From: an uncultured bacterium
Lineage (GTDB): Bacteria > Babelota > Babeliae > Babelales > Babelaceae
Assembly (NCBI GenBank): GCA_963848965.1
Contig: CAWKFG010000004.1
Coordinates: forward strand, 608,001 to 672,000
Direction: 5' to 3'
Length of the DNA stretch: 64,000 nt
Part shown: one piece after another, positions 2,094-56,522 of the stretch
Numbering within the stretch: position 1 is the stretch's first letter
Layout: each line of letters begins with the position of its first letter
Notes under the pieces: model-generated
The model's input: only the letters and a program-made list of their open reading frames with translations
The model's database searches: none
Told to the model about the DNA's origin: nothing
Made by a program: the position numbers and the translations under genes

Positions 2094-3815
2094 TTATACA
2101 AGAAATTGCATACAATGTGAGCATAAATAACTTGATTGATAAGCAAGAGCTTCTTTACGGGTAAGAGAACGAGAGCACAAGGTACATTGTACTTGCTCTT
2201 CATCCGCTTGCTTAGAAGCAGCCTGTTCACATCCTAAGTCTAACATTGAATTATCACCAAAGATAGGTGATGAGGGAAGAGAAAGTAGTGGTTCAGAAGG
2301 AATGAAACCGAGAAGTTGCTCAAGACTCATATCTTTTGCCCACTCTGCTATACCATTTTTTGATTCACCAAGGCCTTTTTTATCAGACAACTCTTTTTCA
2401 TCTATGTTCTCACCTAAAAGCTGTAGTAATTCAATAAATGCAGACTCTTTTAAATTAATACTGTTATGAGCAGAATTAGAGACAACATAAAAACGTTCTT
2501 CTTGGTTTTTATTTATCACCACTGTTATCCAATGAAATGTAGTAAACAAGCAAACACAATATACACCTTTTGAATGGGGATCCTTCATCAATTCTTGCAA
2601 CTTGCTTAAGTTTTCGTTGAGCCCCTGTTCTACTTGCTCTTTGAGCGCCCCATAGGTAAGACGGTCTGCAAAAACAATAAAAAGATCTTTAAAGAGAGCA
2701 TCCGGTTCTACCTGAGTAAAATGGTGTACCAAAGAAGCTATCTCATCACTTGTAAGCAAATTTCCAACTTGACGTTCTTTTATTTTGTTCCATTCACTAT
2801 CTTCAAGCTCTACAGATCCTTTATCTCTTACTGTATGATCGTTTATTGCATTAGCTTCTCCACTTAAAAGGATCGATGTATTGCTTGATAGTTCTGCAAC
2901 TGAGTAAGGAGTAATAATAAAGCGCATCGCAGCTAATTGAGGAAAGTAAGCATTTATAGCATCGTCTGTAGAGAGTTGCTTATAATCAAACTTAGCTTCA
3001 TCTTCCGTTCCAGCATTACGCTTAACCTTATTTTCTATCACCTTCTTTAATATAAGGCGAATTTCATGCTCTGCCAATTGTACAGATTGAGCTTTTAACA
3101 AGCCATTACAAATACTATGATCAAGAAAGAACACTTCATTAAATTCCTTAAAAATAGAATCAAATTTCAAACGTTCTCTTACTCCATCGCTTATACATTC
3201 TGCTAAATAAGATTTCACGTTACCTATAACATGACGAAACGCCTCTATTACAGGATCTTGGTTTTCAAAAGCAACTGCACCCTCGTTAAAAGCAAGAGTA
3301 TATCCTCTCTCTACTTTTTGAGCACCCTTCAAACTCAGCAAAAGGCGATTACACACAAAATTTGCCAGCATTTTTCTTTTTCTAGCTTTAGCGATAATGT
3401 TTCTCCAAGCAGCTCTTCTGTCTAAACACATAACCTTTATTAAAGGCACGTTTGTTAACATAGTAGCAAGCGTAGAGCATGACTGTTGCCCTTTTAAAAA
3501 ATTGGCAATCGAAACACCATTTAACAGTGCTGTATAACCACAGCTTAAATCCTCTTGAGAAGCGGTAAATTGATCTGTAACTCTTATCTGTACCGCATTG
3601 TTATGCTGATCAAGAAAAAGATTGTTTCTCTTAAATTCTTCTACCGCAGCTGCCAGAGATAAGTGCACTGTACCAGCAGGTTCTTCATGAGATGATTTCT
3701 GCGGCTCTATTTCAATAACTTCTTCTATTTTACGCTTACGAGACTCCTTTTCAACTTCCATACCATACACAGGAAGAGTTAAAAAGAGTATACCGAGTAT
3801 CTTATTTACATTCAT
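2094..3815 (-). CDS. Secreted putative papain-like cysteine protease with C-terminal zinc finger
   Basis: Signal peptide then GME; QEDLSCGY, HWITVV and VVSNS motifs; CTLC..CSHC at the C-terminus; AGGAG upstream of ATG 3815. Confidence 0.5.
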   Translation of the reverse strand: MNVNKILGILFLTLPVYGMEVEKESRKRKIEEVIEIEPQKSSHEEPAGTVHLSLAAAVEEFKRNNLFLDQHNNAVQIRVTDQFTASQEDLSCGYTALLNGVSIANFLKGQQSCSTLATMLTNVPLIKVMCLDRRAAWRNIIAKARKRKMLANFVCNRLLLSLKGAQKVERGYTLAFNEGAVAFENQDPVIEAFRHVIGNVKSYLAECISDGVRERLKFDSIFKEFNEVFFLDHSICNGLLKAQSVQLAEHEIRLILKKVIENKVKRNAGTEDEAKFDYKQLSTDDAINAYFPQLAAMRFIITPYSVAELSSNTSILLSGEANAINDHTVRDKGSVELEDSEWNKIKERQVGNLLTSDEIASLVHHFTQVEPDALFKDLFIVFADRLTYGALKEQVEQGLNENLSKLQELMKDPHSKGVYCVCLFTTFHWITVVINKNQEERFYVVSNSAHNSINLKESAFIELLQLLGENIDEKELSDKKGLGESKNGIAEWAKDMSLEQLLGFIPSEPLLSLPSSPIFGDNSMLDLGCEQAASKQADEEQVQCTLCSRSLTRKEALAYQSSYLCSHCMQFLV

Positions 3816-3941
3816 TGACAAACTCCTATAATCTACTTCACCAGCGGCAAAGTACTCAGAAAGCAAATTTAACATGTATAATAGTATTATCTAATAAGGC
3901 AAAATTGTCAAGAAGGCCACTTAGTCAAAGTATATGATTTA

Positions 3942-4613
3942 CTAATTTGCAAACTTCTGCGAGTCCACGTTTGCACACGTGCCCTCCTGTTGCACTTCTA
4001 ATGGGTTACGCATTACCGCTTGCGACTGTTGAGGAACACATACTGAAAGGCGATTAATAATAGCCTCAATCGCAAGTGCTTTATTATGCTTTAAAATACG
4101 GTCATAGCGAGTTAAACTAGCATAAAGATCTTTTATACCTGAACAACAGGTAACTGCTCCAATACTTGCTAAAAGCCATTTTACTATGAGAGAACCATAC
4201 GTATGGTTCTCTAAAATAGTTACAGTCGTAGGAGCTGTAGATTCTGCTCCTTCTGCTGCCGGAACTTCGGAAGAGACCGTATGAGCAACAGAAAAGGTAC
4301 CTGCTTTAAAAAACTGGCGGCTCATGAGTGCAGCAGCCGCTCCTAACACAAGCTTAAAACTTCCTTTCAGCAAACGAACACTGTCAGAAAGGGTAAACTG
4401 CTTTTGCATCTCTCCATAAGTCTTATTGGTATTATCACATGCAAGCTTTACATATTTGGACTTATCATCTAAGCACAAAATAAAGTGCGGGATAAACAAT
4501 CTTTGCAATTTAGATGGCTCTCCATCATTAATTGCCTCTTCAATAGGATCATAAATACCTACTATTCGCACACTATATGCTATTATTAATCCCACTAATA
4601 CGATTCTTTTCAT
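3942..4613 (-). CDS. Exported hypothetical protein with hydrophobic hairpin (paralog family A)
   Basis: Signal peptide; IEEAI..EPSKL, KSKYVKLA, two hydrophobic segments, KALAIE. Confidence 0.7.
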   Translation of the reverse strand: MKRIVLVGLIIAYSVRIVGIYDPIEEAINDGEPSKLQRLFIPHFILCLDDKSKYVKLACDNTNKTYGEMQKQFTLSDSVRLLKGSFKLVLGAAAALMSRQFFKAGTFSVAHTVSSEVPAAEGAESTAPTTVTILENHTYGSLIVKWLLASIGAVTCCSGIKDLYASLTRYDRILKHNKALAIEAIINRLSVCVPQQSQAVMRNPLEVQQEGTCANVDSQKFAN

Positions 4614-4705
4614 CGGTTGCTTCCTTCTCATATACTCAAAGGTATAGAATGCCCTACCTCTTTAATGTACACCTGAAACCTCTTAGAAAGCAACCATGAA
4701 CACAT

Positions 4706-4732
4706 AAAAAAAGCCCCTGCTTATGCAGGGGC
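4706..4732 (-). terminator. Rho-independent terminator of the Nudix gene
   Basis: gcccctgc-ttat-gcaggggc stem followed by a T run on the minus strand. Confidence 0.8.
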
Positions 4733-4742
4733 ATCTTTACTT

Positions 4743-5468: not shown

Positions 5469-5652
5469 TATTAACCTTTCTATGTGCGTGATATTTAGCG
5501 ATAATTATATATTTAATAATATAGAATATATAGTATAATTGCCAAATAATCAATAGCAATAGAGGGAGGGTTATTTCAGTGCCCACTTTTATTTAAGTGG
5601 CGCTTCTTCGCCTTAAAGAGATGGTTCTTAATTTCTCTATTTTGTTTCCGGA

Positions 5653-7050
5653 GTGACTTTCTCTCTCCAATGAATTGAAGAGCATCAATGAAGATGCAGG
5701 TGAGATTCGTAGATCATATGCCAATCAAGGTTAAAAGACTTTGATTGCAAGACTACAGGGCTAGCCACATGCCCACTACTCTCATTACTAAGAGATACAT
5801 ACTTCTTGAGTATATTTAACGCTCCATTACAATCTGCCTGCATTTGCCATCCACACGTACACTTATACCATCCTCTTCCTTTTCTTTGGCTCTTGGACAC
5901 CTTACCGCAAGCGTAACAAGTTTTAGAAGTATAAGCTTCATTTACAGTTATCACTTTTATGCCTAAGCAAGCGGCTTTATACGTAATCATATGCTTTATC
6001 TTTGCATAAGCCCATGCATGTAAACGCTGATTAAGGCGATGGCCCCAATCGATACGTTCTCTTATACCGGTAACGTCTCCTACTACTATAGTATCAACAC
6101 TTGAATTATAGCACTGCATAACAAAATGCTTTGTAATCATATGAAGCATATGGTCTATCTGCCCCTCTTCTTTATGCGCAACTTGAGCGAACCTTTTACT
6201 CTTTCTTTTGCCTTTAGAAGGAGGTTTTAGGCTTGCTCTTACTTTTTGCCAATACCTACGGATAGACTTTACGAACATGCCTTTATAGAGCAGAGCTGTA
6301 CCATCATCAAAGACTGCTGTAATTAAATAAGTCTCACCGAGATCTACAGCTACTGTACGAGAGCCAAGAGGTTGACAAGCGTTAATGTAAACCACTAGAT
6401 GGGCACAGAGTCCATTATTTTTATCGTAAGTGAGTACTACATTAATAACTTTTGTAAACGTAATATCTTTACGCATGGCAAGCTTAAGGTCTAGATGCTT
6501 AATGCCATCATCTCGCTTTGTACCTAAGCTTATAGTAAGTACATCATCTTCTAAGGTAAAACCAAAACCATTATGGTAACGTAAAGGAGAATAAGAATTT
6601 TTAGGACGAAAGCTAGGTTGTTGATGCTGAGTATATCCTTTAGCCTTAAGAGCCATAAAACTTTTATGTGCTTGAATAACCTCATCACGAGTAGCTTGTG
6701 TAGAATGAGAATAGTAAGCCTTGCAGGCAGGCAAGAGCTTAAGACAAGCATTGAGATCTTTACGGCTAGGCTTACAATTACCTTGACGGATATGCCAAAG
6801 GAGACCATTGTATACCTTAGTAGCATACCACAGAGCTCCCTTTACTATGCACTCAGTATAAGCATTTGTTTCTATCTTTGCTACAATAGTTAATAAAGGC
6901 ATAACTTTCTCCTCAATCTTTAGTATAACTTAAGAGCGAGTTCTTGCAACTGCCTTGCGCCTGGAAGGCGCTCGCCTTGCCTGTCCGCCATAACTTTAGT
7001 GAAGGCTGGATATCTCCCCTATAAATAGAGGTGGATTACGGCAAATTCTC
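5653..7050 (-). mobile_element. Solo-tnpB IS200/IS605-group (IS1341-like) element
   Basis: tnpB without tnpA. Left-end hairpin at about 7014-7035, preceded on the minus strand by TTTA. Right end gaatctcac...gagagaaagtcac. Boundaries are inferred. Confidence 0.6.
5685..6902 (-). CDS. tnpB: RNA-guided endonuclease TnpB (rearranged RuvC-II type)
   Basis: VAVDLG, IVVGD, NEAYTSKTCYACG, CTCG zinc finger, ADCNGALNI. Confidence 0.9.
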   Translation of the reverse strand: MPLLTIVAKIETNAYTECIVKGALWYATKVYNGLLWHIRQGNCKPSRKDLNACLKLLPACKAYYSHSTQATRDEVIQAHKSFMALKAKGYTQHQQPSFRPKNSYSPLRYHNGFGFTLEDDVLTISLGTKRDDGIKHLDLKLAMRKDITFTKVINVVLTYDKNNGLCAHLVVYINACQPLGSRTVAVDLGETYLITAVFDDGTALLYKGMFVKSIRRYWQKVRASLKPPSKGKRKSKRFAQVAHKEEGQIDHMLHMITKHFVMQCYNSSVDTIVVGDVTGIRERIDWGHRLNQRLHAWAYAKIKHMITYKAACLGIKVITVNEAYTSKTCYACGKVSKSQRKGRGWYKCTCGWQMQADCNGALNILKKYVSLSNESSGHVASPVVLQSKSFNLDWHMIYESHLHLH

Positions 7051-8523: not shown

Positions 8524-8913
8524 TTATCTTTTGGAAATCGATATAGCTTCGGATTGACTGTTTTCAGGAGGAAGAACTCCTTTGCTTTTTGGTGAAAGAG
8601 TAATTGTAGCCTTACAGTCTTTAATATCTGGACTTACGGTTATTACAATATACTGGCCAAGTAAATTTAATAATTTAAATAACCTATCAATTGAGAATCC
8701 AGCAAGTTTCCCTGTACTTAATGCTGATACTTTAGGTTGGCTAATACCTAATAGTTTAGCTGCTTGGGATTGATTTAAGCCTCTTTCAGCTATAGCCCTA
8801 TTAACTTCACTAGCAAGTTGAGCTTTTGCTAATCTTTCTTCAGGATTTGGCAACCCTAGGTCTGCAAACACGTTACCAGAGCTTATTTCGTATTCTATTT
8901 TTTTATTTTTCAT
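8524..8913 (-). CDS. XRE-family HTH antitoxin (HigA-like)
   Basis: SSGNVFADLG N-terminus; HTH LNQSQAAKLLGISQPKVSAL..GKLAGFSIDRL. Confidence 0.88.
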   Translation of the reverse strand: MKNKKIEYEISSGNVFADLGLPNPEERLAKAQLASEVNRAIAERGLNQSQAAKLLGISQPKVSALSTGKLAGFSIDRLFKLLNLLGQYIVITVSPDIKDCKATITLSPKSKGVLPPENSQSEAISISKR

Positions 8914-9274
8914 GTTTTATATCCTTGTAAATTTTCTCTGCCTCTTTAAGCCTTTGGCGAATTAAATCTATATCTTGTTTAGGTGTTTCTATTGCCTTTT
9001 TAGATTTCTTTTGAAAAACATGTAGTACAAATACAATATCGGCAAAGTTAACAGTATAAACTCCTCTATAAGTTCCACCTCTATCATGAGTAATAATCTC
9101 AAGTACTCCAGCACTCCCAAAGCCTTTTAGTACATAAGCGTTAGAAGCCTGTCTGCCAGATTGAGCTTCGCCGAGGCCATAACCTATAATGTCCTGGACA
9201 TCTTCTGATAGAGCAATTAAATCTTTTTTAGAAGAACCAAGCCAAATCAATGGCTTTCTTGTTTTTCTGTTCAT
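8903..9274 (-). CDS. RelE/HigB-like (Gp49-type) toxin
   Basis: WLGSSKKDL, LKGFGSAGVLEI, TYRGVYTV, VLHVFQKKSK, TPKQDIDLI; overlaps the antitoxin gene. Confidence 0.88.
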   Translation of the reverse strand: MNRKTRKPLIWLGSSKKDLIALSEDVQDIIGYGLGEAQSGRQASNAYVLKGFGSAGVLEIITHDRGGTYRGVYTVNFADIVFVLHVFQKKSKKAIETPKQDIDLIRQRLKEAEKIYKDIKHEK

Positions 9275-12347: not shown

Positions 12348-15026
12348 ATGAAAAAATATTTTTTACTTATAAGTATACTCTCCATTGCATGCCACTCTTT
12401 ACTCTTTGGAATGGAAAAAACAGCTCAACGTCAAGAAAAAAAGATATATAATGGAACTGAAGAAGAGTATATTGATAAAGTAGAATCATATCATAAGAGA
12501 CTATCTTTAGATACGTTACAAAGAAGTATTCCCTTATTCAATGCCATTTATGCCCATAATATCAGCTTTTTAGAACAAAGGTTACAAAAAGACTCGATTA
12601 ACAACTTTATACTCATGGACTTTGGTGGTTTTACTCCTTTAATGCTTGCTTGTTTAGCAGGAGATCTTGAAATAGTAGATTTTCTTTTAACACAAGATGC
12701 TGATGTTAATAAACACAACAGTCGTGGTTGGACACCACTAATGTTTGCTGCAAAAAAAGGTGCGACTGCCATAGTAAAACAACTTCTTGAAAAAAAAGCT
12801 TCTCTTAATGTTACAGTAGTAAACTCTGGTTGGACAGCACTAAATCTTGCCGCAAAAAATGGTCATAAAGATATAGTAGAACTACTAGTTGATAATGGCG
12901 CTGACGTTACTTTAAGATCACAGGATAGAAAAAGCGTTTTAGCACTCGCAGTAGTGTATAAACATAAAGATGTAGTAGCTCTACTTCTTAAAAAAAAGGT
13001 ACCTTTAGAAACTAAAGATGAACAATGGAAAAGTCCACTCTTATTAGCTGTAGAAAGTGGTGATGAGGAAATAGTTTCCTTACTACTTGATAATGGTGCT
13101 GCTATCGACAGTGGCTGTCTTATTAATGATAGACCTGGAAATACTGCGTTAATGCTTGCAGTAAGAGCAGGTAATCAAACAATGATCGATTTACTGCTCA
13201 AACGTGGAGCATTTATAAATGATTGTAACTCACAAGGTCAAACGGCTGCTACGTGGGCAGGACTAGCCGGTGACGAAAAAATAGTACAGCAGCTTATAAA
13301 CGTTGGTACTTCAACGGGGGAGATTAAAGCACAAGCTCTTTTAGGAGCAGCTTTTAAAGGACATACAACGTTAGTAAATACATTACTTAAGCAAGGAACT
13401 TCTGCACATACAAAGGCTTCTGTTAATATCAGAGCAATGAGCGAAGATGTTCTTGATAAAGTAGTAAGCTCTCAATCAGACTATAGAGCAGAAGAAAGCG
13501 CTTTAACCCTTGCAGTACATAATGGCCACACAGAAGTAGTAAAATTATTGCTTGATAATGGTGCTGATATCAACTATAAAAATGAGCGCGGCGCTACCGC
13601 ATTAGTAATAGCTATAGAAAAAGAGAATACAGAGCTCGTAACATTCTTATTAAATCATGGTGCATCTCTAACTATATCTGATAATTACAACCAAACTCCT
13701 TTTAGCCTCGTAGGAAAAATAGGTAACGAAGCTATACTATCTCTGCTCCTAGAACGATGTGAAGATAAACAGACAGCTAAAGTACAAGCCCTCTTTGGAG
13801 CCATTACTTCCCATAATATAAAATGTGTAAGGATCTTATTAGCTATGAAAGTAGATGTTAACACCAAGAATCAAGGCAATACTCCTTTAATATATAGCAT
13901 CAAAAGAGGATGTCCTCAAGAATTAGTAGCTTTACTTCTTGCAGCAGGAGCACATGTTAATGATGAAGATAACAATAGCTGTACTGCATTAATACTGGCA
14001 GTAAATAAAGGATACACAGAACTTGTAGAATTATTGCTTAAAAACCGTGCAGATACTAATACTTGCACCAGCAAAGGTGATACTGCTCTCATACTAGCTG
14101 CTCGCAAGCATTATTACGAGATAGTAAAAATGCTTGTTGCTGCAGGTGCAAACGTTAACGCTCAAAATAGTGATGGTAATACAGCCTTTCTAGAGACCTT
14201 AGAACAGTGGAGCAAGATGGATCGCTCTTTTAGCATGCATCCTAAAGCAATAGTTACCTTACTTTTAGCGCATGGAGCAGAAACAGCCACCCCCAAAAAG
14301 AGCGTTCATTCGTTTATAGGCCAGGTCATGAGCAAAAATTGGCATGAAATTATTTCATTTTTTATAGCAAATGACATAAATATAGGTTCTTTTACCATAT
14401 CAAATTGGCCTTCTGTTAAGACTACACAGCGTTTGTCTTCTCTTATGACACCTGAACTTATGTGTGGTATGATACTCGTTAAGTTGGTCTGGGATTACAA
14501 AATACAACATTATTTAGCAGATGCTTCTCGTTACTCTACAAATAAAGAATGGCTAAAAAATCTGGATCTCATGTACCGTAGCCCAAAAGGACAGACTCTT
14601 CTTATGGTAGCATGTATGGTAGGTCATACTGAAATAGTTAAAGGCCTTAAAAGTTACATAAACGAAGGGTATCTTAATGTTGTAGATGACTATGGATACT
14701 CTGCTCTTGATTATGCCATGATTCTTGGTCAAGTAGAATGTGCTACTGCGCTTATAGATACCTATGGTCATGCGCTTAATATAATCAAAACAAAATCTTC
14801 TGAGTTGCTCGATCAAGCTATAAAGAGAGAGAGCTTACAATTAGTTACGGCCCTCTTAAAAGTTGGTGTTAAACCTACTATTGAGCATGTAAAAAGCGCA
14901 GCAGATCAAGGAAAGCTCTTTATTATGTTTAAACTACTTGCAACTTTTTCCAAGGATAATGCTGATTTTGTTAAAAACCTACCTATAAAAAAAACTTTAA
15001 AAGGAGCTTCAGCACTTTTTAATTAA
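12348..15026 (+). CDS. Secreted ankyrin-repeat protein
   Basis: Signal peptide then GME; many GxTPLxxA...LL..GADVN repeats. Confidence 0.92.
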   Translation: MKKYFLLISILSIACHSLLFGMEKTAQRQEKKIYNGTEEEYIDKVESYHKRLSLDTLQRSIPLFNAIYAHNISFLEQRLQKDSINNFILMDFGGFTPLMLACLAGDLEIVDFLLTQDADVNKHNSRGWTPLMFAAKKGATAIVKQLLEKKASLNVTVVNSGWTALNLAAKNGHKDIVELLVDNGADVTLRSQDRKSVLALAVVYKHKDVVALLLKKKVPLETKDEQWKSPLLLAVESGDEEIVSLLLDNGAAIDSGCLINDRPGNTALMLAVRAGNQTMIDLLLKRGAFINDCNSQGQTAATWAGLAGDEKIVQQLINVGTSTGEIKAQALLGAAFKGHTTLVNTLLKQGTSAHTKASVNIRAMSEDVLDKVVSSQSDYRAEESALTLAVHNGHTEVVKLLLDNGADINYKNERGATALVIAIEKENTELVTFLLNHGASLTISDNYNQTPFSLVGKIGNEAILSLLLERCEDKQTAKVQALFGAITSHNIKCVRILLAMKVDVNTKNQGNTPLIYSIKRGCPQELVALLLAAGAHVNDEDNNSCTALILAVNKGYTELVELLLKNRADTNTCTSKGDTALILAARKHYYEIVKMLVAAGANVNAQNSDGNTAFLETLEQWSKMDRSFSMHPKAIVTLLLAHGAETATPKKSVHSFIGQVMSKNWHEIISFFIANDINIGSFTISNWPSVKTTQRLSSLMTPELMCGMILVKLVWDYKIQHYLADASRYSTNKEWLKNLDLMYRSPKGQTLLMVACMVGHTEIVKGLKSYINEGYLNVVDDYGYSALDYAMILGQVECATALIDTYGHALNIIKTKSSELLDQAIKRESLQLVTALLKVGVKPTIEHVKSAADQGKLFIMFKLLATFSKDNADFVKNLPIKKTLKGASALFN

Positions 15027-15285: not shown

Positions 15286-16665
15286 CTAATAACAAAGACG
15301 CTTCAAATCACAATCATTAAAGTACACACCTGCGCCAACAAAGCCACTTTTATTATGCTTACTAATAAAGTCTTCTGCACCAAAAGTAAGATATAACGAC
15401 GGAGTTATAAAGAGCCTGTTAAGCCATTTTAAATGAGGGCGAGTATCAGTACCTATACGTCTATTACCTCTGAAATCAAATGCTTCGAACGTTGTAATCC
15501 ATTGCCATTGACTAAGCGGAATGCGCCAATCAATACCAAAACCAACAGAGCTTTCAAAAAGTCCTAAACGTACTGCAAACGAATCATTAAACACTTTACC
15601 AACTTGAAAGTTAACACCTACAGAAGTACGTTTTTCTTTGAGACTCGTTTTGCTTTTACCTGTTTTACAATCGATTGTTGTAGTAATTGTCTTTTTTGCA
15701 AAGCCCTTATCAGAAAGAGCAACTCCTCCTAAAATAAAGGCACTTGGTATAGGATAGAAATACAGGTCAAAATAACCTTTAATACGCGGCTTTGTAGGAC
15801 AATCTAAACCGATGAGTGGCTCTACATAGCTATCTACCGCAAATGACCACTGCGAAATTCTGTTAAGTGAATTACAGACACTCTTTACCGAACACTTTAA
15901 ATCTCGATACATCTCATCTTCGTTAATAAGCTTACCAATAACTCCTTGACCTTGATTTAATTTACGTACTACTTCAGCACCATCTTTGAGCGTAGCATCA
16001 GTACGTTTAATACGTTCATCAAAATGAGTTGTTGTCTTTTTAATAGAATCAAATGTTGATTCAAAGCATGTAACAACACGATCAACACTAGAGCTAAGTT
16101 GCGATTTCATATCTCGTACTGAATCTGCAAAGGGTGCTATATTGCCTTTTAAATGAGCAGCTATATCTCTTACTTCTTGTGCAGTATCTTTTAAAGAAAC
16201 TGCAAGCTCTTGGACACTCTGAGAAACTTTGGCAAAGCTATAAAGAATTTCGTCCATTGACATAAATTGTCGTGCTTGATAAGAAATCGTATCACCCATA
16301 TTCAGCGGCTGCTCAAGAGGATCGCCAGTCACAAGCTCGAGAAACTTAAGGCCAAGCATCCCTTCTTGCCGTACAATTGCATAAGCGTTTTTATACAAAG
16401 TATAGTCACGTAGGATCATGAGTTTTGCCTTTACCGTTTTGCCATCAGGTTCAAGCACTACATCATCTACCCATCCGACTTTTACTCCTGCAATTTTAAC
16501 ATCAGCTTTCTTTGCAAGTCCTGCTACATCTTTAAAAAGAGCATAATAGGGTGCATACTTAGAAGTATCAAATCTAAAAGCGCCCAGTTGGACTGACATA
16601 TACAAAAAAGAGCTGATAGCAGTTACGATAAAGATACCTATTATTGCTTCTGTTTTAAGATTCAA
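15286..16665 (-). CDS. MCE/MlaD-domain protein with coiled coil and C-terminal beta-strand-rich domain
   Basis: N-terminal TM; F.DVAGL...ADVKIAGVKVG.V and GMLGLKFLEL MCE motifs; amphipathic beta-strands at the C-terminus. Confidence 0.85.
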   Translation of the reverse strand: MNLKTEAIIGIFIVTAISSFLYMSVQLGAFRFDTSKYAPYYALFKDVAGLAKKADVKIAGVKVGWVDDVVLEPDGKTVKAKLMILRDYTLYKNAYAIVRQEGMLGLKFLELVTGDPLEQPLNMGDTISYQARQFMSMDEILYSFAKVSQSVQELAVSLKDTAQEVRDIAAHLKGNIAPFADSVRDMKSQLSSSVDRVVTCFESTFDSIKKTTTHFDERIKRTDATLKDGAEVVRKLNQGQGVIGKLINEDEMYRDLKCSVKSVCNSLNRISQWSFAVDSYVEPLIGLDCPTKPRIKGYFDLYFYPIPSAFILGGVALSDKGFAKKTITTTIDCKTGKSKTSLKEKRTSVGVNFQVGKVFNDSFAVRLGLFESSVGFGIDWRIPLSQWQWITTFEAFDFRGNRRIGTDTRPHLKWLNRLFITPSLYLTFGAEDFISKHNKSGFVGAGVYFNDCDLKRLCY

Positions 16666-16675: not shown

Positions 16676-17833
16676 TTACAGCCAATAAAGTTTTGAGACT
16701 TTAAATATAATACTTTTTGGTGAAAGATAAGCAGGAGGTTCTGTAACTTCTAAAAGAGCAGCTACTTTTTGTGTAACACCCCCTACCTGAGCATAGGATA
16801 CCACAAAAAATGCAGTTGCTTCAAATTGTGCTCCAAAAAGCGCTCGTATTTCTTGCGGTATATTTGCAAACTTTTTACCATAGAATGGTGCAAGTATTTT
16901 GTCCCATTCAGTTTGCCAGTTCATTGTTGGTTTTAAATCTTTCACAAACTCTTTATTAATTTTAACCTCTTTATTCTCCTTAAATCCAAGAATAGCCTTA
17001 AGGCTATTTGATAAAAGCCATGGATTTAATGTACCAGAACTAGAAGCTGTGGTAAAAAGGTCTGTTACAAAAAGTTGCTGCTTCCCTCTCTGTTGCTGTG
17101 CAGTAGGACGAGTTACAAAAAGCTTATCCTTAAGCGGCGTAAATGATTTTAGCGGTACAAGTTCACTAAAGTCTTCAAGTGGTCGCTTATACTTTCCTTG
17201 TGCTTCTTTAAGAACTTGTCTTATGCTTACTTCCATCTCTTTTTTAATAAGCTCATCAAACACAGTTAATAGATTCTTTGTCTGTCCAGGTTGCTGAGCA
17301 TTTGACTGCTGTCCATTTTGTGGTGGTGCTTGCTGCTGAGCCGCTTGTGCTGCTTGTTGTTTCTGCTTACTTTCAGATTCTAAAAGCGTACTAAGATGCT
17401 CAAGACTTATTTTACCTTGCTCAGAAGAGATATAAAACGATAGAGTACCAGTAATACCCTCCTTCTCTGTAAGCTCAATTGTTTGCCACTTGTTGAGCAC
17501 AGGAAGAATTTGTAAAAGCCACTGCTGCATGGGAGGTGGTTTTTGCCACCCTTCTTTCTTTTGAGCTTCTTCCTTTTGTTGGGCCTGTGCAGGTGCTGCT
17601 TGAGCAGCTTGCTCTTTTTCTTGAGGTGCTCCTTTAGGAACAACAAGACAAATTTTGCTTAATGCTATCTCTAAAGAACTTAAAGCAAGATTCCGCGCTT
17701 GCTCTCGGTCAAGCATAAGACGAGCCTGACGCTGATAACTCATTGCCCGCTGAATAACAGAGGTCACAAGTATTACTGCCATTGAAATAATCATCAATGT
17801 CAGTGGTAATATATACCCTTGGTTTTTTTTCAT
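16676..17833 (-). CDS. gspK: T2SS minor pseudopilin GspK-like
   Basis: G|YILPLTL prepilin site lacking E5; SSEQGKI motif; last pilin of the operon. Confidence 0.65.
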   Translation of the reverse strand: MKKNQGYILPLTLMIISMAVILVTSVIQRAMSYQRQARLMLDREQARNLALSSLEIALSKICLVVPKGAPQEKEQAAQAAPAQAQQKEEAQKKEGWQKPPPMQQWLLQILPVLNKWQTIELTEKEGITGTLSFYISSEQGKISLEHLSTLLESESKQKQQAAQAAQQQAPPQNGQQSNAQQPGQTKNLLTVFDELIKKEMEVSIRQVLKEAQGKYKRPLEDFSELVPLKSFTPLKDKLFVTRPTAQQQRGKQQLFVTDLFTTASSSGTLNPWLLSNSLKAILGFKENKEVKINKEFVKDLKPTMNWQTEWDKILAPFYGKKFANIPQEIRALFGAQFEATAFFVVSYAQVGGVTQKVAALLEVTEPPAYLSPKSIIFKVSKLYWL

Positions 17834-17841
17834 ACTTTACC

Positions 17842-18831
17842 TTATTCTAGAGCATTCGCTGCATTTGCCTGAGCTTGTGGCTGTGATCCATTTTTAAGGA
17901 GCTCTGCTCCTCGCTTTTTCATCCAGTCTTCTAAATCTTTTATAGGACCTCCAGATGCCGGCGTTTGTTGTGGTGCTGGTGGCTTTGGTTTATATTGATC
18001 ATAGGCATAGACTTTAAACACAAATTCAAAGGGATATTCAACAGTACCAGCCGGATTTACACGGCTTCCTCTTATAGTTACATAAGCAGGAATAAGCGAT
18101 TTATACTTTTCCCACACTTCAGACTCTTTCCATTCTTTAAGCGCTGCAGGAGGTGTTTTGCTCTCTGCTGGTTTCTGCTCTTGTTGAGCAGTATCCTTTT
18201 TCTCTTCTGGAGCTTCATACACCGTAAGTTCTACAGAGAAATTTTTTATGCCAGAAGCAATCTCATACGATGGAGAAAACTGCGGGGCTCGTAATGACTT
18301 TACATCAGTACGATCAGCTTCGTACCGATACATTAAACGCAAAGCAGCTGGGTTGTTAGGATCCTTTTCTAAGAGATAAGCAACTCGTCTTACATACGGA
18401 ACAACTACCAATTTGCCATCTTTATCAAGCGTTTGTAAGCCACCAGTTGTAATAAATGTCCAAAAAAGGTCAGTACCTTTTTGTTCTATTATGAGTACAG
18501 AATCTTCAGGAGCCTTTTTTTCTTGTTGAGCACCTTGTGCTGGAGATTGCTGAGTTGCTTGTTGTGCAGCTTGCTGTTTTGCTTGCGCTTGCTTTTTCTT
18601 CATCTCTTTTTCCACATAGGGCTTAAGAGCTTTTTGAGGAGCAAACATACCAGTTACATCTTTTTCAAGCTGGGTATACAATGCCATTAAGGGAACATCA
18701 ACATCCATAATATCGGTTATACGAGCAACTCCACGACGAGTTTGTGATAACATTTGATATAAGCTTATCACCATCAAGGAAGATATAAGCAGAGCAAGCA
18801 TAAGCTCTATAAGCGTAAAACCAGATCTCAT
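17842..18831 (-). CDS. gspJ: T2SS pseudopilin GspJ-like
   Basis: G|FTLIELMLAL; LEKDV; RVAY; gene order. Confidence 0.7.
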   Translation of the reverse strand: MRSGFTLIELMLALLISSLMVISLYQMLSQTRRGVARITDIMDVDVPLMALYTQLEKDVTGMFAPQKALKPYVEKEMKKKQAQAKQQAAQQATQQSPAQGAQQEKKAPEDSVLIIEQKGTDLFWTFITTGGLQTLDKDGKLVVVPYVRRVAYLLEKDPNNPAALRLMYRYEADRTDVKSLRAPQFSPSYEIASGIKNFSVELTVYEAPEEKKDTAQQEQKPAESKTPPAALKEWKESEVWEKYKSLIPAYVTIRGSRVNPAGTVEYPFEFVFKVYAYDQYKPKPPAPQQTPASGGPIKDLEDWMKKRGAELLKNGSQPQAQANAANALE

Positions 18832-19253
18832 GACTCAGTACGCTCCTTTTCCTTTGGATAAAAACGAAACATAGTAAACGTTTCTTTTTGGTCACCAAGT
18901 AGTCCTGGCCACTGTGCTTCTACGTGTTCAATAACAAGATGTGGATACGCTTTAAACTTTTGAGCATCGGTAGGAGCTGCAACTGAATATCGTAAGGTTG
19001 TAACAGGATCCTCAATTTTTCTCTCTTGTATTCCTTCTTTTTCATACAATTTATCGCGATCTGCCTGGACAAACATACTTTTTATATAAGGAATACGGTC
19101 AATAATTCCATGTGCGCCAAAAACAGCACGTGATAGTACCCCTTGAAGGCTTAAAAGAGAGGTCACAGAGATTCCTACAATTAAAATAGCAATCATTGCC
19201 TCCAGTAAGCTTAGGCCCTTCTTATGTACAAAAAATATTTTTATTATATACAT
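18828..19253 (-). CDS. gspI: T2SS pseudopilin GspI-like
   Basis: G|LSLLEAMIAI; gene order. Confidence 0.65.
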   Translation of the reverse strand: MYIIKIFFVHKKGLSLLEAMIAILIVGISVTSLLSLQGVLSRAVFGAHGIIDRIPYIKSMFVQADRDKLYEKEGIQERKIEDPVTTLRYSVAAPTDAQKFKAYPHLVIEHVEAQWPGLLGDQKETFTMFRFYPKEKERTES

Positions 19254-19735
19254 TAGCGTAATCTAAAAACTCCTGTAAAAGGGTTTAAATAGAATTCATA
19301 GTTCCCTGCTCGCTGATTTTGAGCACGCACACGATGATCAATAAGTGTCATAGTTACTTCTTGACTGATACCATCTGGATTTAAAAGAAAGTAGACAGTA
19401 CGTTTCTCGCCAGCGGCAGTAAATTGGCTTTTTCCATTAATGAGTACATCACCTATTTCAACTACATCAGGTATAGCAATAGAGCGCTTAACCTTATTAT
19501 CATTTACTCCCTGTAGCTCAACTTTTTTAGCCATTATATTAAAAAGCACTTTTTGAGACTCTTGGGTCTGTAGGGCCAATTGCGCGCCATCCTGCACTAA
19601 AGCATTAAGGCGCGCAATAAACTGTTCACTTTGTGTCAGTGTTCCTCTGGTAAATCGAGGAATACCCAAGGTCGCCACTATTCCAATGATAAGAATAACG
19701 ATCATTAGCTCAATAAGTGAAAACCCTTGTTTCAC
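19253..19735 (-). CDS. gspH: T2SS pseudopilin GspH-like
   Basis: G|FSLIELMIVI; NPDG; NPFTG at the C-terminus. Confidence 0.72.
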   Translation of the reverse strand: MKQGFSLIELMIVILIIGIVATLGIPRFTRGTLTQSEQFIARLNALVQDGAQLALQTQESQKVLFNIMAKKVELQGVNDNKVKRSIAIPDVVEIGDVLINGKSQFTAAGEKRTVYFLLNPDGISQEVTMTLIDHRVRAQNQRAGNYEFYLNPFTGVFRLR

Positions 19736-19741
19736 TGTGCT

Positions 19742-20191: not shown

Positions 20192-20218
20192 GAAATTCCT
20201 TTCTTAAATAAATGGTAT

Positions 20219-26246: not shown

Positions 26247-26465
26247 ACCCCTCTCCTTCATTTAATTTTTGTCATTATATCTAATATTAAGTATATATTA
26301 TTTTTAATTGAAAAATAAATTATTGAGACAAATAAAATTAAAAATTCTTGGATTTTATCTTAAATAGAAATGATACAAAAACTTAAAAAGTGTAATAAGT
26401 CTCCAAGCAGTAGTAGAGATGCAGGTATAACCTTTATGTAAAAGAAGATTCAAAGCTCTTATTGT

Positions 26466-43742: not shown

Positions 43743-44636
43743 ATGTACTATATATTACTTTTTTTTACTCTTTTGGCACATATGGCACTTCAAGGCATGG
43801 AGCAGGAGCAAGGAATCAAAGGCTTTTTGAGTTTATTGTCTCCAGATTTAAAATCTGAACTTACAAAATACGCTGATACCAAGGTAGACCTTTTACCTAA
43901 AGAGCTTCAAGCAGAACTTGTTCAGTTCCTTGTGGGACGGGCTGCCCAACCATTTGTTAAGCTGGATTGGCAAGAGCTTATAGAACTTGCGCGTAATCTT
44001 AAACCCATTTTCTTGCAAGCAACAGATGCAAAGAAGATTGATCAGATTTTTTCCCAAGCGGGTTTTGGAATGCCTGAGAAAGGTAAAATCGCTGGTTCAG
44101 TAAAGTATGATATATATGGTGCTTATTTGATCGCTTCTGTTTTAAATATACCTGCAGTAACTGCGTGGTTAAAAGATCAATTGAAAAAGAGTGCAGAATG
44201 GACATGGAACGCGCAAAGCGTACTCGTAGATATCGTACGTGAACTGGGCAAGTTAAAGCAGGAAGGAGTAAAGGGGACAGTTCTTTCAGAAAAACAAAAA
44301 GAGCTTGTATCAACTTTAGAAAATAGTATAAAAACCCTCCTTGCACTAGGCGTCAATGTTAATAGTTATCATTCTCCACTGTACCCAGTTTCTCCCTTGG
44401 CAGCGGCAGCAGGTACTGCTGACTTTGAAACCGTACGTCTTTTAGTAAATCACGGTGCAAATGTAAATTATCATTATATACGAGAATCTGGGGTATCAAG
44501 ATATGACAGAGGACCTACTCCCTTAGAAACAGCCTTAATGGGTCAGCATGATGCAAGACAAAATCATCAAGAAGAGCTTGTAAAAAAGTTTGACGAAATC
44601 ATTAAGTACTTAAAGAGTAAAGGGGCTGTCGAATAA
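43743..44636 (+). CDS. Secreted ankyrin protein, family B (tandem F-box-like motifs)
   Basis: Signal peptide then GME; FLSLLSPDL and VDLLPKEL; IPAVTAWL shared with the 25494 and 26466 proteins. Confidence 0.8.
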   Translation: MYYILLFFTLLAHMALQGMEQEQGIKGFLSLLSPDLKSELTKYADTKVDLLPKELQAELVQFLVGRAAQPFVKLDWQELIELARNLKPIFLQATDAKKIDQIFSQAGFGMPEKGKIAGSVKYDIYGAYLIASVLNIPAVTAWLKDQLKKSAEWTWNAQSVLVDIVRELGKLKQEGVKGTVLSEKQKELVSTLENSIKTLLALGVNVNSYHSPLYPVSPLAAAAGTADFETVRLLVNHGANVNYHYIRESGVSRYDRGPTPLETALMGQHDARQNHQEELVKKFDEIIKYLKSKGAVE

Positions 44637-44782: not shown

Positions 44783-46558
44783 TTAGGCTGTTTTCTCTTT
44801 ACTTACAATAAAGCCTTTAACTATAAGCTGCAATAGAATAGCATTATCGTCTGTTTGTGCAATCTTTTTAATAAGGTCTATGCCTGGCCGCGCTCCTGCT
44901 TGTATAAGTCTATGAGCTAGTTCCTTATTTTCTTTCTTTAAAGCATAAGCAAGTGCTGATTTACCTTCTGCATCACAAATATTGATTGCTCTTTCTGCCT
45001 TTTCTAATTCTTGTTTAAGAGCAGCTTGTTTTACAGGATTTGTCTCTTGCTTTAAGAGAGTACTTATATCTTTTATTTTTCTTTCATAGGCTTGAGCAAG
45101 AAGTTGTACAGCATCTTTATGACCATACATAATAGCATATATTAACGCTGTACGACCCTGAGGATCTTGAGCATTAAGATACCATAATGGTATATCTACT
45201 CTTAGCAGCTGTTCTAATGCTTCTTTATGTCCAAGCATACTCGCCCACATTAGTACTGTCATATGAAAGCAGTGCGTATGATCACCCGTTTCTTTTTGTA
45301 GCAAATAGTGTGTTGAAGGGTTAACCTGACACAATCTGATGTATTTACTCTTTTCAAAACAATGCTCTCTATGCCATTGTGCATAAGATACCGGTTCACT
45401 TCTATAAAGATCTAGTACCGGTAGACTATAACAAGCGTTTAAAAGTAGTCGACTTTCTGCTGGAAGAGCACCAAAGCGCGGTACTCTATTCATATCATCA
45501 CGTGTAAACTTTGCTGAGTGCTTAAGAAGTAAAGCTACAACCTCTGGATCTGATGCTTGCATTAAAGCAGTTTCCATAGAAGCAGAATTGTCGCGCATAT
45601 TAACATCAGCTCCTGCCTCTATAAGCATTTCTGCCATTTGTCTAGATCCTTTACTTGCAGCAACCATTAAAGCACTTCTACCATTCTTATCCTGAATATC
45701 AACACGAGCACCACGAGTTATAAGTATCTTAGCTACTTGCTGATGACCATGTCTTACTGCCAGCTCTAAAGCACTAGTTCCAAATTCATCTTGAGCATTA
45801 ACATTTGCTCCTGCAGCTATTAGTAGCTCTGCGAGCTCTTCAAATCCCTTATCTCCTCCTTTTAGAATATCATGCTCTTTAAGACTATAACTTGCTGCTT
45901 CCATTAATGCAGGATCACCCTTACTACTTTGAGCATTAACATCAGCACCATGAGCTAGGAGTAATTTTACCACTTTTTTAAATCCATACCTTGTAGCAAT
46001 TCTTAAAGGTGATTCGCCATTACGATCTTCCACATTAACAAGGGCACCTGCCTTAAGAAGTATCTTTGTTATTTCTTCATCACCATCCCACATTGCAAAT
46101 AGTACAGCAGTTTGCCCATCACTATGAGCTTGTATGTTAACGTCTGCCTTTTGCTCTATCAATATATTTATTACTTCTTTATAGACACCCTTAGCACAAT
46201 ATTTCACCATAGATCTTACGGCATATATCAAAGCGGTCCAGCCATAAGTATCTTGAGCATTAACATGAGCACCGTGGGCTATAAGGAGCCTTACCAGCTC
46301 TTTGTGCCCCTTTTTTGCAGCTAGCAGAAGAGCAGTGCGTCCTTTATCATCAGATACCTCAATAGCAGCTCCTTTTTCTAAAAGCCTTAGAACTTCAATG
46401 CAATCTCCCCTTTGAGCAGTTTCTAATAAAGCTTTATCACTGCTATTTTCTCTTTTAACTCTCTTAGCTTGTATCTTTTCATCTTCGTACTCTCTTTTCA
46501 TTGCCTCTGTAGAGAGAAAGACACTTATACAACACAATGCAAAAAACACTTTATACAT
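44783..46558 (-). CDS. Secreted ankyrin-repeat protein
   Basis: Signal peptide then AMK; basic KRVKR; many ankyrin repeats; TVLMWASM block. Confidence 0.92.
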   Translation of the reverse strand: MYKVFFALCCISVFLSTEAMKREYEDEKIQAKRVKRENSSDKALLETAQRGDCIEVLRLLEKGAAIEVSDDKGRTALLLAAKKGHKELVRLLIAHGAHVNAQDTYGWTALIYAVRSMVKYCAKGVYKEVINILIEQKADVNIQAHSDGQTAVLFAMWDGDEEITKILLKAGALVNVEDRNGESPLRIATRYGFKKVVKLLLAHGADVNAQSSKGDPALMEAASYSLKEHDILKGGDKGFEELAELLIAAGANVNAQDEFGTSALELAVRHGHQQVAKILITRGARVDIQDKNGRSALMVAASKGSRQMAEMLIEAGADVNMRDNSASMETALMQASDPEVVALLLKHSAKFTRDDMNRVPRFGALPAESRLLLNACYSLPVLDLYRSEPVSYAQWHREHCFEKSKYIRLCQVNPSTHYLLQKETGDHTHCFHMTVLMWASMLGHKEALEQLLRVDIPLWYLNAQDPQGRTALIYAIMYGHKDAVQLLAQAYERKIKDISTLLKQETNPVKQAALKQELEKAERAINICDAEGKSALAYALKKENKELAHRLIQAGARPGIDLIKKIAQTDDNAILLQLIVKGFIVSKEKTA

Positions 46559-48445: not shown

Positions 48446-50619
48446 TTATGTTAGCAAAGCAGTAGTAATATAGCTCCCATCCTCAGATGGTATCATCATA
48501 CGAATAACGTTTGCTAGCATTTTCCATTGCCCAAGCTTTCGTGCTAACCATAAAGTTCTAGCAGGTACCTTTATAGGGTTGTTTGCCTCTCTTGGGAGCA
48601 TATGAAGCATATCATTAAAGATTCCTAAATTTTCAGATCGTAGAGCATGATCAAGCGCACAATCTTCACTATCATCTTTAAGATAGAGCCCATTACCACT
48701 TTTAGGTATAAGGAGACGCGCTATATCAAAATTTTTGCATAACAGTGCATACATAAGCGCTGTATAACCGTATTTATCTTGTGCATTCACAAACCATTGA
48801 GGGCATGTATCAACAATTGCTTGCACTACATCTCCATCTCCCATAATACTTGCCCACATAAGCACCGTTTGTTTACAACTCGTTCTTTCATACATTCCTT
48901 GAATACAGCTGTTAATTACATCATTTGATGTTTTATAGTTCTTAAACTCAGGAGATTGAAAGACATTAACAAGATAACACACAAAGGGATATTGATGCAA
49001 AGAAGATTGAATCTGGTTACAACTATCAAACGATGAACAGTCTAAGCCGTATGAGACAAGATAAGCAAGTATATCAATCTTCTGATAAGCTATAATATTA
49101 GTAAACCAATCAACAGGAACCGTATTAAGATCAATTTTTACATACTTAAGAAGAATAGCAAGAGGCTCTAGTCTACCAAAGAGAAGTGATTTGATAAATA
49201 TATGCCACATAGCAGCGTCAGACGTAATTTTTAACTTAATCACCTTTTCAAGAGTATCATTATTTGCATATAAAAGAAGCTCTTCTACTGCTCGCTCAGA
49301 AAGAGGCACCCCTAGGTCTATAAGAAAGCAGACAAAACCTTCTCTTTTTTTCAATACAGCCTCTTCTAATACTTGAGTTAAATCTCTGGAGAAGCATTAC
49401 AAGCTTTTGACTGTAAAAGAAGTTGCATAATTTGCGATGTACTATTTCCCAATACTTCTAATGCTTCTCGGATATCAGATCTAATAACTTCAGCGGCTCG
49501 ACGAGTATGAGTAGGAGGTACCAAAGAAATTTTTGCACCTGCTTGTATCAATCTTTGAATTATTCTCTTATCTCTTATCTTTACTGCTTCTATAAGAGCA
49601 TCTCCCTGTTTTACGTTTACTTGTGCTCCCGCTTTTATAAGCTCATCAACAACGTACAAATGCCCGCCTTTTATTGCAGCACACAAAACATATCCTTCAT
49701 GCACTTTGCCAACATAATTAATATCTGCGCCAGCTGTAATAAGCAGCTTTACTGCATTTATATGTCCTCGAGAAGCTGCATGCGTAACAGCACTTATATA
49801 ATCGTGTGAGATCCCATTCGGATTTGCTCCATAATCAAGTAATTTTTGTATAACTTCAACGGAACCTCCACGTGCTGCATATGCAAGAGCTTGGTTATGC
49901 GAGTCTCTAACATCAACACCCTTTTTAATAAGCCTTTCTACAAGGTCAACATCACCTAGTAAAGCAGCATAATTAAGAAACGTTTCTTCTTCGTCTTGTG
50001 GAATCTCTTTAATACGATCCATAAATAGTTTTACAAGCTCCTTATATCCTTTAAAGGCAGCTCTACCAATAGCAGTCCAATGCTCTGTATCTGTAACATT
50101 AAGTAAAGCACCTGCTTCTAAAAGAGCCAAAGCTGTCTCTAAATATCCATATTGAGCAGCTTCTATAAGAGCAAGCGAAAGTTCTCTTTTATTAACTTGT
50201 TTTCCATATGCTTGTATAAGCATTAAAACAATTTCAGTATATCCACGAGCAGCTGCATAGAGCAAAGCAGTAAACCTATTATTTTTAGCATCTATGGTAG
50301 CATGTCGTTCTAAAAGCAAAGAAACAAGGGCCTTATGTCCATAGCGTGCAGCAACCATTAAAGGTGTATCGTTATCACTATTAAGACTATCAACAGATAT
50401 ACCGGTATCAAGCATTTTCTGCACTTCTTCAACATTGCCCTGCACAATTCTTTTAAATAGTTTATCTTGAAGAGCTATATACCGTTGATAGTATACAGAG
50501 CGTACTCTATCATAATCCGAATCTTCACCTGAATCTTCATCGCTTGAATACTCCATACAAATACTAGAGAAACAAATAGTTATTACTAATAAAAAAGCAA
50601 GAAATTGTTTTGAATTCAT
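48446..50619 (-). pseudogene. Secreted ankyrin-repeat gene split by a frameshift (ORFs 49378..50619 and 48446..49354)
   Basis: Near 49383 the reading SPEI* continues in a shifted frame as DLTQVLEEAVLKKREG into the second ORF; the joined architecture matches the 12348 and 44783 proteins. Confidence 0.72.
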
Positions 50620-52366: not shown

Positions 52367-52465
52367 AGCAAAATACCTATATTTGTAAAAAAGGCGTTAT
52401 TTTATTGCTTTTTGAATTTTTTAATATTTATACTAAAGATAAAGGAGACCGTAGCAAGGATTGTC

Positions 52466-55714: not shown

Positions 55715-55832
55715 GGAAAATTCTTCTTTTTCCTTATAAATCAAGAGAAATTATTGACTTATTAAGTTTTATATTTGTATTTTCAATATAAGAAAATATA
55801 AAGTATATAATATTTAAAGGAAAGGAAAAGTC

Positions 55833-56255
55833 ATGACAAAACTTACATTAGCATTACTTTTTAGCGTTACAGCATATGTTGCGGTACAAGCTATGAACAA
55901 TGACAATAATACAAGCGGAACAACTAGCACAGAGATGACCGGTACTACATCTGGAACAACTGGTACAGCAGATGCAGGTATGACATCAACTATAGGCGCA
56001 CATGGTACAACTGGTACAGAAATGACCGGTGCTTATGGTATGACAGGCGTTGGTGCTACAGGAAGTTATGGAACAACCGGAACAACAGCCGCTGGTATGA
56101 CAGGCGCAGATGTAACAGCAACTACGGGCACAGCTACTACAGCAGATGATACAACAGGATCAACAGCTACTGGTACAGCTGCCGATACAGGTACAACAGA
56201 AACAACAACTGGTACAGGTCAAACTGCTGGTGGTACAGGATCTGGGGCAGCATAA
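55833..56255 (+). CDS. Secreted Thr/Gly-rich low-complexity protein
   Basis: AAGGA RBS; signal peptide ending VQA then MN; TG/GMTG repeats. Confidence 0.7.
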   Translation: MTKLTLALLFSVTAYVAVQAMNNDNNTSGTTSTEMTGTTSGTTGTADAGMTSTIGAHGTTGTEMTGAYGMTGVGATGSYGTTGTTAAGMTGADVTATTGTATTADDTTGSTATGTAADTGTTETTTGTGQTAGGTGSGAA

Positions 56256-56333
56256 GCTCTAAAAACTTTTAATGCCCATTATATCAAGCCTCTTCTTGTT
56301 TATTGGGCATTATTTCAATAAAAAAGGAAGACT

Positions 56334-56522
56334 ATGAAAAAAGTTATTTTGTCACTAGTATGCAGTATAACAGCCTCTTTAGCACTACAAGCTATGGAAC
56401 CAGCTCATAGAGGAGCATATGGTACAGTTCCCCCTGCAACGGGAGTTTATGGAGCAACAGGTGGTGAAGTACGCGGTACTCAGATGAGCAAAGATTTTTG
56501 GACCAATTGGTTTGAGTCTTAA
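56334..56522 (+). CDS. Small secreted Gly-rich peptide
   Basis: AAGGA RBS; signal peptide ending LQA then ME; GAYG and YGATG similar to the upstream gene. Confidence 0.6.
   Translation: MKKVILSLVCSITASLALQAMEPAHRGAYGTVPPATGVYGATGGEVRGTQMSKDFWTNWFES

Follow-up and report, generated by a model that had tools for sequence, protein, structure and literature searches.

A methionine-first signature at predicted signal-peptide ends of host-type proteins in a Babelota genome

Three described systems come closest to the pattern analyzed here, in which a methionine directly follows the predicted signal peptide of many proteins encoded in a 64-kb stretch of DNA (the window; positions 608,001–672,000 of contig CAWKFG010000004.1, assembly GCA_963848965.1) and elsewhere in the same genome of an uncultured Babelota (Dependentiae) bacterium. 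The Q-rule of Bacteroidetes, the nearest bacterial case, likewise places a lineage-specific residue at +1, immediately after the signal peptidase I cut, in many unrelated proteins (PMC5837995, PMC10653852). The Plasmodium export element (PEXEL) also appears similar, in that cleavage exposes x-Glu/Gln on a poorly conserved spacer in hundreds of effectors; this parasite lives in a vacuole, its exported proteins are separated from resident ones, and xE/Q/D termini carry the export specificity and are read for export through PTEX, the Plasmodium translocon for exported proteins (PMC10653839). Finally, type II secretion system (T2SS) substrates follow a two-step route through Sec and a secretin, and the GspC of the source genome has a PDZ domain like that of EpsC (PMC12369372).

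The Babelota signature differs from each of these systems. In contrast to the Q-rule, the +1 residue is Met rather than Gln, it is found on host-type cargo rather than on most exported proteins, it is accompanied by a preference at +2, its distribution across Babelota is patchy, and no modifying enzyme was identified. We do not consider it a member of the Q-rule, because both the +1 residue and the scope (Met in 0 of 7 envelope proteins) disagree. Unlike PEXEL, it is bacterial, its +1 residue is nearly fixed as Met in the source genome, and it is known here from sequence alone; the RxL motif and plasmepsin V are not seen, and the hydrophobic core is followed at once by the upstream consensus L-Y/F-A/G/S. 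The T2SS signals known so far are folded surface patches on ∼20 substrates per species (PMC7949064), whereas here a linear N-terminal tag lies on more than 200 proteins.

The source genome is a metagenome-assembled genome of 1.73 Mb in 5 contigs, 88.7% complete, with 1,532 genes in a first set of gene calls and 1,589 in a second. Cultured Dependentiae dwell inside protists, and Babela massiliensis grows in a vacuole, carries signal peptides on 79 of its 126 ankyrin proteins and has the T2SS as the only secretion system found (PMC4378268). In C. destructans, signal peptides are predicted for 44% of all genes and, among the ankyrin proteins, for 78% (PMC6561590). We infer a protist host for the source genome as well. 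A Dependentiae secretome of signal-peptide-bearing ankyrin and other eukaryote-like proteins together with a T2SS has already been described (PMC4378268, PMC6561590, PMC4776705); the main texts of these three papers, supplements aside, do not contain the word "methionine". The rule was not described in the literature searched on Dependentiae/Babelota signal peptides, ankyrins, secretion and N-degron effectors, a body that excludes subscription papers.

Methionine at the predicted cleavage site

Cut sites were predicted heuristically by three predictors, each of which ignores the residues at +1 and +2. Met occupies +1 in 139 of 584, 167 of 420 and 244 of 391 predicted signal-peptide proteins, respectively, compared to a Met content of 1.65% in the proteome, so that the enrichment anticipated by the initial annotation is present at 24–62%, depending on the method. 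We regard this as the honest range, since the third predictor is a profile trained on 225 Met-class proteins, which biases the 62% upward; in five-fold cross-validation it cuts before Met in 194 of the 225. Independent of any cut model, a Met peak at positions 19–22 is seen only in proteins with a hydrophobic N-terminus (7–10% vs 1–2%).

The consensus is a signal of 18–21 residues ending in L-Y/F-A/G/S, followed by Met, by Glu/Gln/Lys and then by K/P/Q/R, often with a further Glu. From +3 to +25, Pro, Glu, Gln and Ser abound, and hydrophobic residues are scarce. The upstream part has the features of a signal peptidase I site directly before the Met, with n, h and c regions, a small residue at −1 (A 36%, G 27%, S 25%, C 7%, T 5%) and a small or aliphatic residue at −3 (L/T/I/S/V/A/C); five proteins have Pro at −1, and one homolog of 81% identity has Pro in place of Ala at this position. 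Gln, the residue of the Q-rule, is at +1 in 16 of the 391 calls of the third predictor. Within the context small-x-small, X, E/Q/K, the residue X is Met in 167 of 277 instances. Glu, Gln or Asp follows at +2 in 185 of the 244 Met proteins vs 29 of the 147 others, based on predicted termini.

The +2 preference is itself selective (E147, Q35, K25, N6 and D3 among the 244 Met proteins): Glu is 9-fold enriched (16 expected), and Asp is depleted (12 expected). In the Kozak consensus, the start codon is followed by G. A Kozak-like reading, with ATG-G serving host ribosomes, was rejected, as codons for Asp, Ala, Gly and Val also begin with G, yet are rare at +2. The initial annotation had proposed that the host acetyltransferase NatB acetylates the Met-Glu/Gln tip, which would stabilize or target the effector. 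The composition agrees in part, since 191 of 244 starts are Met-E/D/N/Q and Met-Asp is commoner in some relatives than in the source genome. However, NatB also takes Met-Asp and Met-Asn (PMC11735805), whereas here both Asp and Asn fall below expectation, with Glu:Asp at 147:3 and Gln:Asn at 35:6, compared to human second residues of E 9.6, D 5.7, N 3.2 and Q 2.3 (PMC4692089; p=9e-32 and 3e-7). Met-Lys is also common (25/244), and a stretch from another Babelota family (f13) has Met-Ser/Thr. Additionally, NatB acts co-translationally while tethered to the ribosome (PMC11735805), and the tagged proteins are made on bacterial ribosomes. NatB mimicry is thus an improbable explanation.

A methionine could also arise here without any function, as an alternative or relic start codon, as part of a copied signal cassette or through a preference of the peptidase. 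That the residue is Met, and that one cluster of 97 related proteins inflates the raw counts, would fit such an origin. An alternative start had also been named as a concern in the initial annotation. The internal Met has a Shine-Dalgarno site before it in 1 of 218 genes, compared to 162 of 218 for the signal start, and in genes where only one upstream start is possible the counts are 0 of 123 and 93 of 123, respectively. The 244 tagged proteins fall into 121 clusters, 109 of which are singletons and the largest of which contains the 97 proteins; when each cluster is represented by a single protein, Glu still occupies +2 in 84 of 121. Signal DNA is 36.5% identical between unrelated cargo, reaching at least 70% in 3 of 28,658 pairs. 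A single LepB was found in the genome, and its non-Met substrates start with many different residues, which argues against a peptidase preference. Of 385 non-independent paralog pairs formed by 117 proteins (median identity 36%), 379 have the Met in one or both members; in these, identity is 0.94 at +1, compared to 0.28 at −1, 0.37 at +2 and 0.09–0.37 for the flanks overall, and 290 of 2,241 internal Met residues (13%) are conserved. Since the Met lacks a Shine-Dalgarno site, does not travel in a copied signal cassette and outlasts its flanks in paralogs, we conclude that it is under selection, and that explanations without function are largely refuted and very unlikely. The sequence data thus indicate a real, genome-wide Met-first signature, borne by the host-type cargo described below.

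Cargo of the signature and its distribution

Pfam scans covered 149 of 161 non-ankyrin Met-class proteins, 150 of 209 other signal-peptide or lipoprotein candidates and 138 further proteins, mostly over their first 380–420 residues. The Met is present in 123 of 164 ankyrin proteins by rule, or in 135 with a looser rule. The 149 scanned Met-class proteins include 13 C2H2, 8 WD40, 5 LRR, 3 TPR and 2 RING proteins, as well as one MYND protein, one UCH and one phospholipase; four housekeeping matches look like miscalls. A eukaryote-like set of 209 proteins was assembled, from which six unconfirmed WD40 matches had been dropped, and 153 of its members received a signal call from the profile that ignores +1 and +2. 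Met follows the predicted cut in 138 of these 153, compared to 106 of 238 in the remaining proteome and none of the 7 envelope residents called in this way (p=4e-7). The comparison of cargo classes suggested in the initial annotation is therefore borne out: Met marks eukaryote-like cargo and spares envelope proteins. Among 25 envelope proteins overall, one Omp85 has an ambiguous Met, and many of those without a call resemble lipoproteins or proteins with an anchor. The Met is also missing from most of the glycosidases, proteases, oxidases and glycosyltransferases that are exported. Val and Thr are stabilizing N-termini by the classical N-end rule, and each is one base away from Met; among the 153 eukaryote-like calls, they occur at +1 zero times and once, respectively.

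Several individual proteins are worth recording. A mitochondrial carrier (PF00153, E 3.5e-25) encoded on the minus strand at L098:3518-4399 (G000:C1:328701-329585) has a signal peptide followed by Met-Glu. Its nine homologs form a signal-bearing family, and Met is kept in 6 of the 8 with a visible signal (31–81% identity); the protein is a candidate effector for host mitochondria. Secreted proteins with multiple C2H2 zinc fingers occur in arrays (L093, G000:C1:233097-241900; L112); 17 such proteins are recognized in the genome by pattern, 14 of them called with signal and Met, and they possibly mimic host transcription factors. Three tandem dual-specificity phosphatases on the plus strand at L104:17339-19807 have near-identical signal ends, one starting with Met-Glu and two with Lys. 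A minor class of Gly-Gly starts comprises three WD40 proteins, one ankyrin protein and several unknowns (L109:14060-18754, L082:12147-13406 and others); such starts may be myristoylated by the host or represent a second tag.

Met-Lys starts (n=30) form a distinct subgroup, as 19 of the 30 continue with Arg, all on ankyrin proteins. A bipartite nuclear localization signal consists of two basic clusters separated by a spacer. In the Met-Lys-Arg proteins, basic residues cluster again at +13 to +19 (45 of 133 residues vs 194 of 1,540, in a window picked post hoc), and 7 of the 19 match the bipartite pattern, compared to 14 of 220. By sequence, these starts look like bipartite nuclear localization signals.

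The signature was also followed in ∼1.6 Mb of stretches from other Babelota, partly selected around ankyrins. Met at +1 is seen in 11 of 18 Babelota families and is absent from small samples of the remaining ones. In unselected stretches, 26 of 44 signal-bearing ankyrin proteins have the Met, as judged by eye, and genome G130 has it in most. In genome G138, 7 of 12 ankyrin proteins have no signal. Envelope homologs again lack Met at the predicted cut (0 of 14), and a small control outside Babelota gave 1 of 11 and 0 of 5. A search of plasmids for ankyrins of other protist symbionts returned 5 records, none of that kind. A DNA-pattern survey, in which 146 of 151 Babelota genomes matched and mostly beat a reversed control, was discarded as evidence because the pattern also beats the control in Blattabacterium (12 vs 0) and Christensenella (14 vs 2).

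The ten sites of the 64-kb window

All ten signal-end motifs that had been read in the window are found verbatim in translated open reading frames (ORFs), and the profile blind to +1 and +2 cuts directly before the Met in nine of them. The six minus-strand genes had been named by their 3′ ends. The first, a 593-codon ORF at 2094-3875 (−), has a signal peptide and Met-Glu (VYG/ME, 3756–3815; Met codon 3759-3761) with an RKRK basic cluster directly after, and may contain a cysteine-protease domain. Clear ankyrin proteins account for five further sites: LFG/ME at 12348–12416 (+; Met codon starting 12411) of an 892-aa protein (12348-15026), LQG/ME at 26187–26246 (−; 26190-26192) of 25494-26261, LWA/ME at 35174–35230 (−; 35177-35179) of a 907-aa protein (32507-35230), SIC/ME at 50551–50619 (−; 50554-50556) of 49378-50619, and TEA/MK at 46451–46558 (−; 46499-46501) of a 591-aa protein (44783-46558), where the signal peptide is followed by Met-Lys-Arg...Lys-Arg-Val-Lys-Arg. 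The last is the one site of the window that is not of NatB type, on account of its Met-Lys-Arg nuclear-type start. Two proteins with weak ankyrin matches carry an LPxEL motif; one has Met-Gln (LQG/MQ, 27369–27428, −; 27372-27374; gene 26466-27428) and the other Met-Glu (LQG/ME, 43743–43802, +; starting 43797; gene 43743-44636). The remaining two are a 140-aa Thr/Gly-rich protein (55833-56255) with Met-Asn (VQA/MN, 55833–55898, +; starting 55893), for which the blind profile made no call, and a 62-aa peptide (56334-56522) with Met-Glu (LQA/ME, 56334–56399, +; starting 56394). A search of the ESM Atlas with residues 1–45 of the 12348 protein gave no usable match.

The initial annotation had described this cargo as unrelated and as including a protease. 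The five clear and two weak ankyrin matches narrow that diversity. The protease is unconfirmed: the 2094 protein has a weak ElaD/SseL-like match (E 0.006) and no match among PDB sequences, and the trypsin-like protease of the window (31555) starts with FS/HN, without Met. The one homolog found for the 2094 protein (65%) keeps both YG/ME and RKRK, as well as a Cys-Gly-Tyr near residue 112 and a His-Trp near residue 448 (2094-3875, −). These Cys/His motifs resemble a permuted Ulp1-like peptidase described for B. massiliensis, a likeness that is unconfirmed.

A helix motif, YLxxLPxELxxEL, recurs in 49 proteins, for the most part in ankyrin proteins and close to their mature N-terminus; the window contains copies at 27228-27362 (−), 43815-43949 (+) and 34865-34999 (−), and 46 more genes carry it. 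We take it to resemble F-box or ubiquitin-binding UBM motifs, neither of which is confirmed. An F-box identity was rejected, as neither the 26466 and 43743 proteins in Pfam nor the PDB sequences gave an F-box match; the PDB matches were weak ones to HUWE1 and REV1 fragments (E 0.4–0.7). Other genes in the window include two encoding MutS domain III/V proteins (35224-37308, −, with a signal-like N-terminus, and 60998-63052, −), two IS605-type TnpB genes (5685-6902, −; 29754-30860, +) and a Gp49/HTH toxin-antitoxin-like pair (8524-9274, −).

Possible roles of the exposed terminus

We propose that signal peptidase I cuts directly before the conserved Met, as predicted, and that the resulting Met-Glu/Gln tip, displayed on a predicted flexible stalk, would serve as a linear address. 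The address would single out host-bound effectors among the periplasmic proteins and send them on, likely via the T2SS, and a bacterial reader would thereby direct cargo that may be delivered to the host cytosol, nucleus and mitochondria. Met-Lys-Arg starts would be tolerated variants whose Lys doubles as the beginning of a nuclear signal. We assign a probability of about 0.45 to the reading of the tip as a linear address during export, as for Plasmodium xE/Q/D termini. Recognition is favored over avoidance because Val and Thr are nearly absent at +1, Glu outnumbers Asp by 147 to 3 at +2, and the cargo has no common fold. The Glu:Asp disparity suggests a binding pocket rather than mere avoidance, and the 121 clusters with 109 singletons make one shared folded epitope unlikely. 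By inference, the Met tag works most like the Plasmodium termini, without being related to them; in genome G040, one ankyrin family varies at +1 (A, F, M) and holds Gln at +2, a pattern that resembles xE/Q/D termini. That the T2SS is the only secretion system found in B. massiliensis also favors the proposed route.

The same termini could instead be explained on the host side, where Met followed by a large polar residue would resist methionine aminopeptidase (MetAP) and N-degron ligases without being read by the bacterium; selection would act only on proteins working in the host cytosol, and acetylation would not be needed. By the MetAP and Met-hydrophobic degron rules (PMC4692089), MetAP-removable residues at +2 are few (16/244), as are hydrophobic ones (6/244). 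Alternative cargo starts are mostly Gly, Ala or Ser, and other lineages use Ala/Ser or Met-Ser/Thr, all of which are ordinary eukaryotic termini; the Q-rule also acts through stability (PMC10653852). However, protection leaves unexplained why Met is not replaced by Val, Thr, Ala or Ser and why Glu so exceeds Asp. Non-Met cargo showed no excess of stabilizing residues when this was examined directly (7 of 15 vs 56 of 132, p=0.79), although several cuts looked misplaced, and some likely cytosolic enzymes start with Lys, Leu, Tyr, Asp or Glu and some paralogs with Ile or Phe. We consider host-side protection the main rival account of the signature, possible but less probable than an address, and the two can hold together.

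A third kind of explanation invokes a bacterial enzyme, such as an exported acetyltransferase, that would modify or cap the Met after cleavage in the manner of the Q-rule. Two GNAT acetyltransferases have signal-like N-termini (L161:138-830, +; L155:7331-7864, −), but a query with the L155 enzyme matched in 5 of 61 genomes and in none of 6 others in its own family; L161 was not searched. The periplasm is not known to hold acetyl-CoA, which also counts against such an enzyme, and we judge this explanation to have little probability.

With regard to the machinery of the proposed address, the initial annotation correctly noted T2SS genes. The window contains gspF, gspG and four further pseudopilin-like genes at 16676–21442 (−; Pfam T2SSF, T2SSG and N_methyl), of which 18828 and 16676 have no Pfam match and are assigned by position. 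Elsewhere, gspC, a GspL/PilM-like gene and three tandem secretins are located at C4:763-775 kb, and two T2SSE ATPases are present. Thus GspC, D, E, F, G, L and minor pseudopilins are accounted for, with GspK, M and O assigned by position or eye only. The proximity of these genes to the ten sites, which had been considered informative, is attributable to chance, as tagged genes make up 9 of 57 in the window and 244 of 1,589 in the genome (p=0.85). An MlaD/MCE gene (15286-16665, −) lies directly downstream of the pseudopilin cluster on the same strand, 10 bases apart. The three secretin genes, one encoding 1,142 aa, lie with gspC and the L-like gene at G000:C4:764526-774999 (L156, L157); two secretin copies have been reported for the phylum (PMC4776705). 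The PDZ domain of GspC is supported by homolog annotation, a structure model and a fold search, and the EpsC PDZ domain selects a substrate in Vibrio (PMC12369372). The GspC PDZ domain and the three secretins are candidate readers.

Several observations weigh against the address. Known T2SS signals are folded and composite, without a common linear sequence (PMC7949064), and the comparable Q-rule, for which a sorting role had been suggested, proved not to have it (PMC5837995). No reader was found; the exported GNAT query and a query with the N-terminal region of one exported AAA protein, made with the AAA+ unfoldase of the PTEX vacuole translocon in mind (matches in 4 of 41 genomes; other AAA proteins not searched) gave no phylum-wide match. 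The control of true signal peptidase I envelope substrates is small, and the 62% figure is inflated by the training of its profile. The Met is absent from some proteins that probably act in the host: four WD40 proteins begin with Gly-Gly or Ser, and three of these carry basic clusters of nuclear type; Met is also missing in 1 of 2 UCH, 3 of 4 dual-specificity phosphatases and 3 of 4 DnaJ proteins. In other Babelota the signature is patchy, with Met at +1 in 43 of 185 calls. The ankyrin proteins of genome G041 (22 sampled) mostly start with Ala or Ser, most of those of G040 do not start with Met either, that genome using Ser-Gln, Ala-Glu and Ala/Phe/Met-Gln, and the f13 stretch has mostly Met-Ser/Thr.

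A broader proposal, which we advance only tentatively and consider rather unlikely, is that Sec and the three-secretin T2SS of Babelota form a Plasmodium-like pipeline, in which a two-residue address (Met-Glu here, Ala/Ser-Gln elsewhere) and a bacterial reader would move a cargo of hundreds of unrelated proteins through both the outer membrane and that of the vacuole to the host cytosol, nucleus and mitochondria, with untagged enzymes staying in the periplasm or vacuole lumen. If so, this would be the first portable linear export signal of T2SS type. If the address is real, it would answer, for one system, the long-standing question of how the T2SS selects unrelated substrates, and would represent convergence with malaria parasite export; if host-side protection is true, the signature would show, on the scale of a whole genome, bacterial signal peptides shaped by the N-degron rules of the host. 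Even if no mechanism is assumed, the effector set of a widespread, barely cultured phylum can be predicted by the motif from sequence alone, a set that in the source genome comprises ∼15% of the genes, ∼100 of them without a detected eukaryote-like domain.

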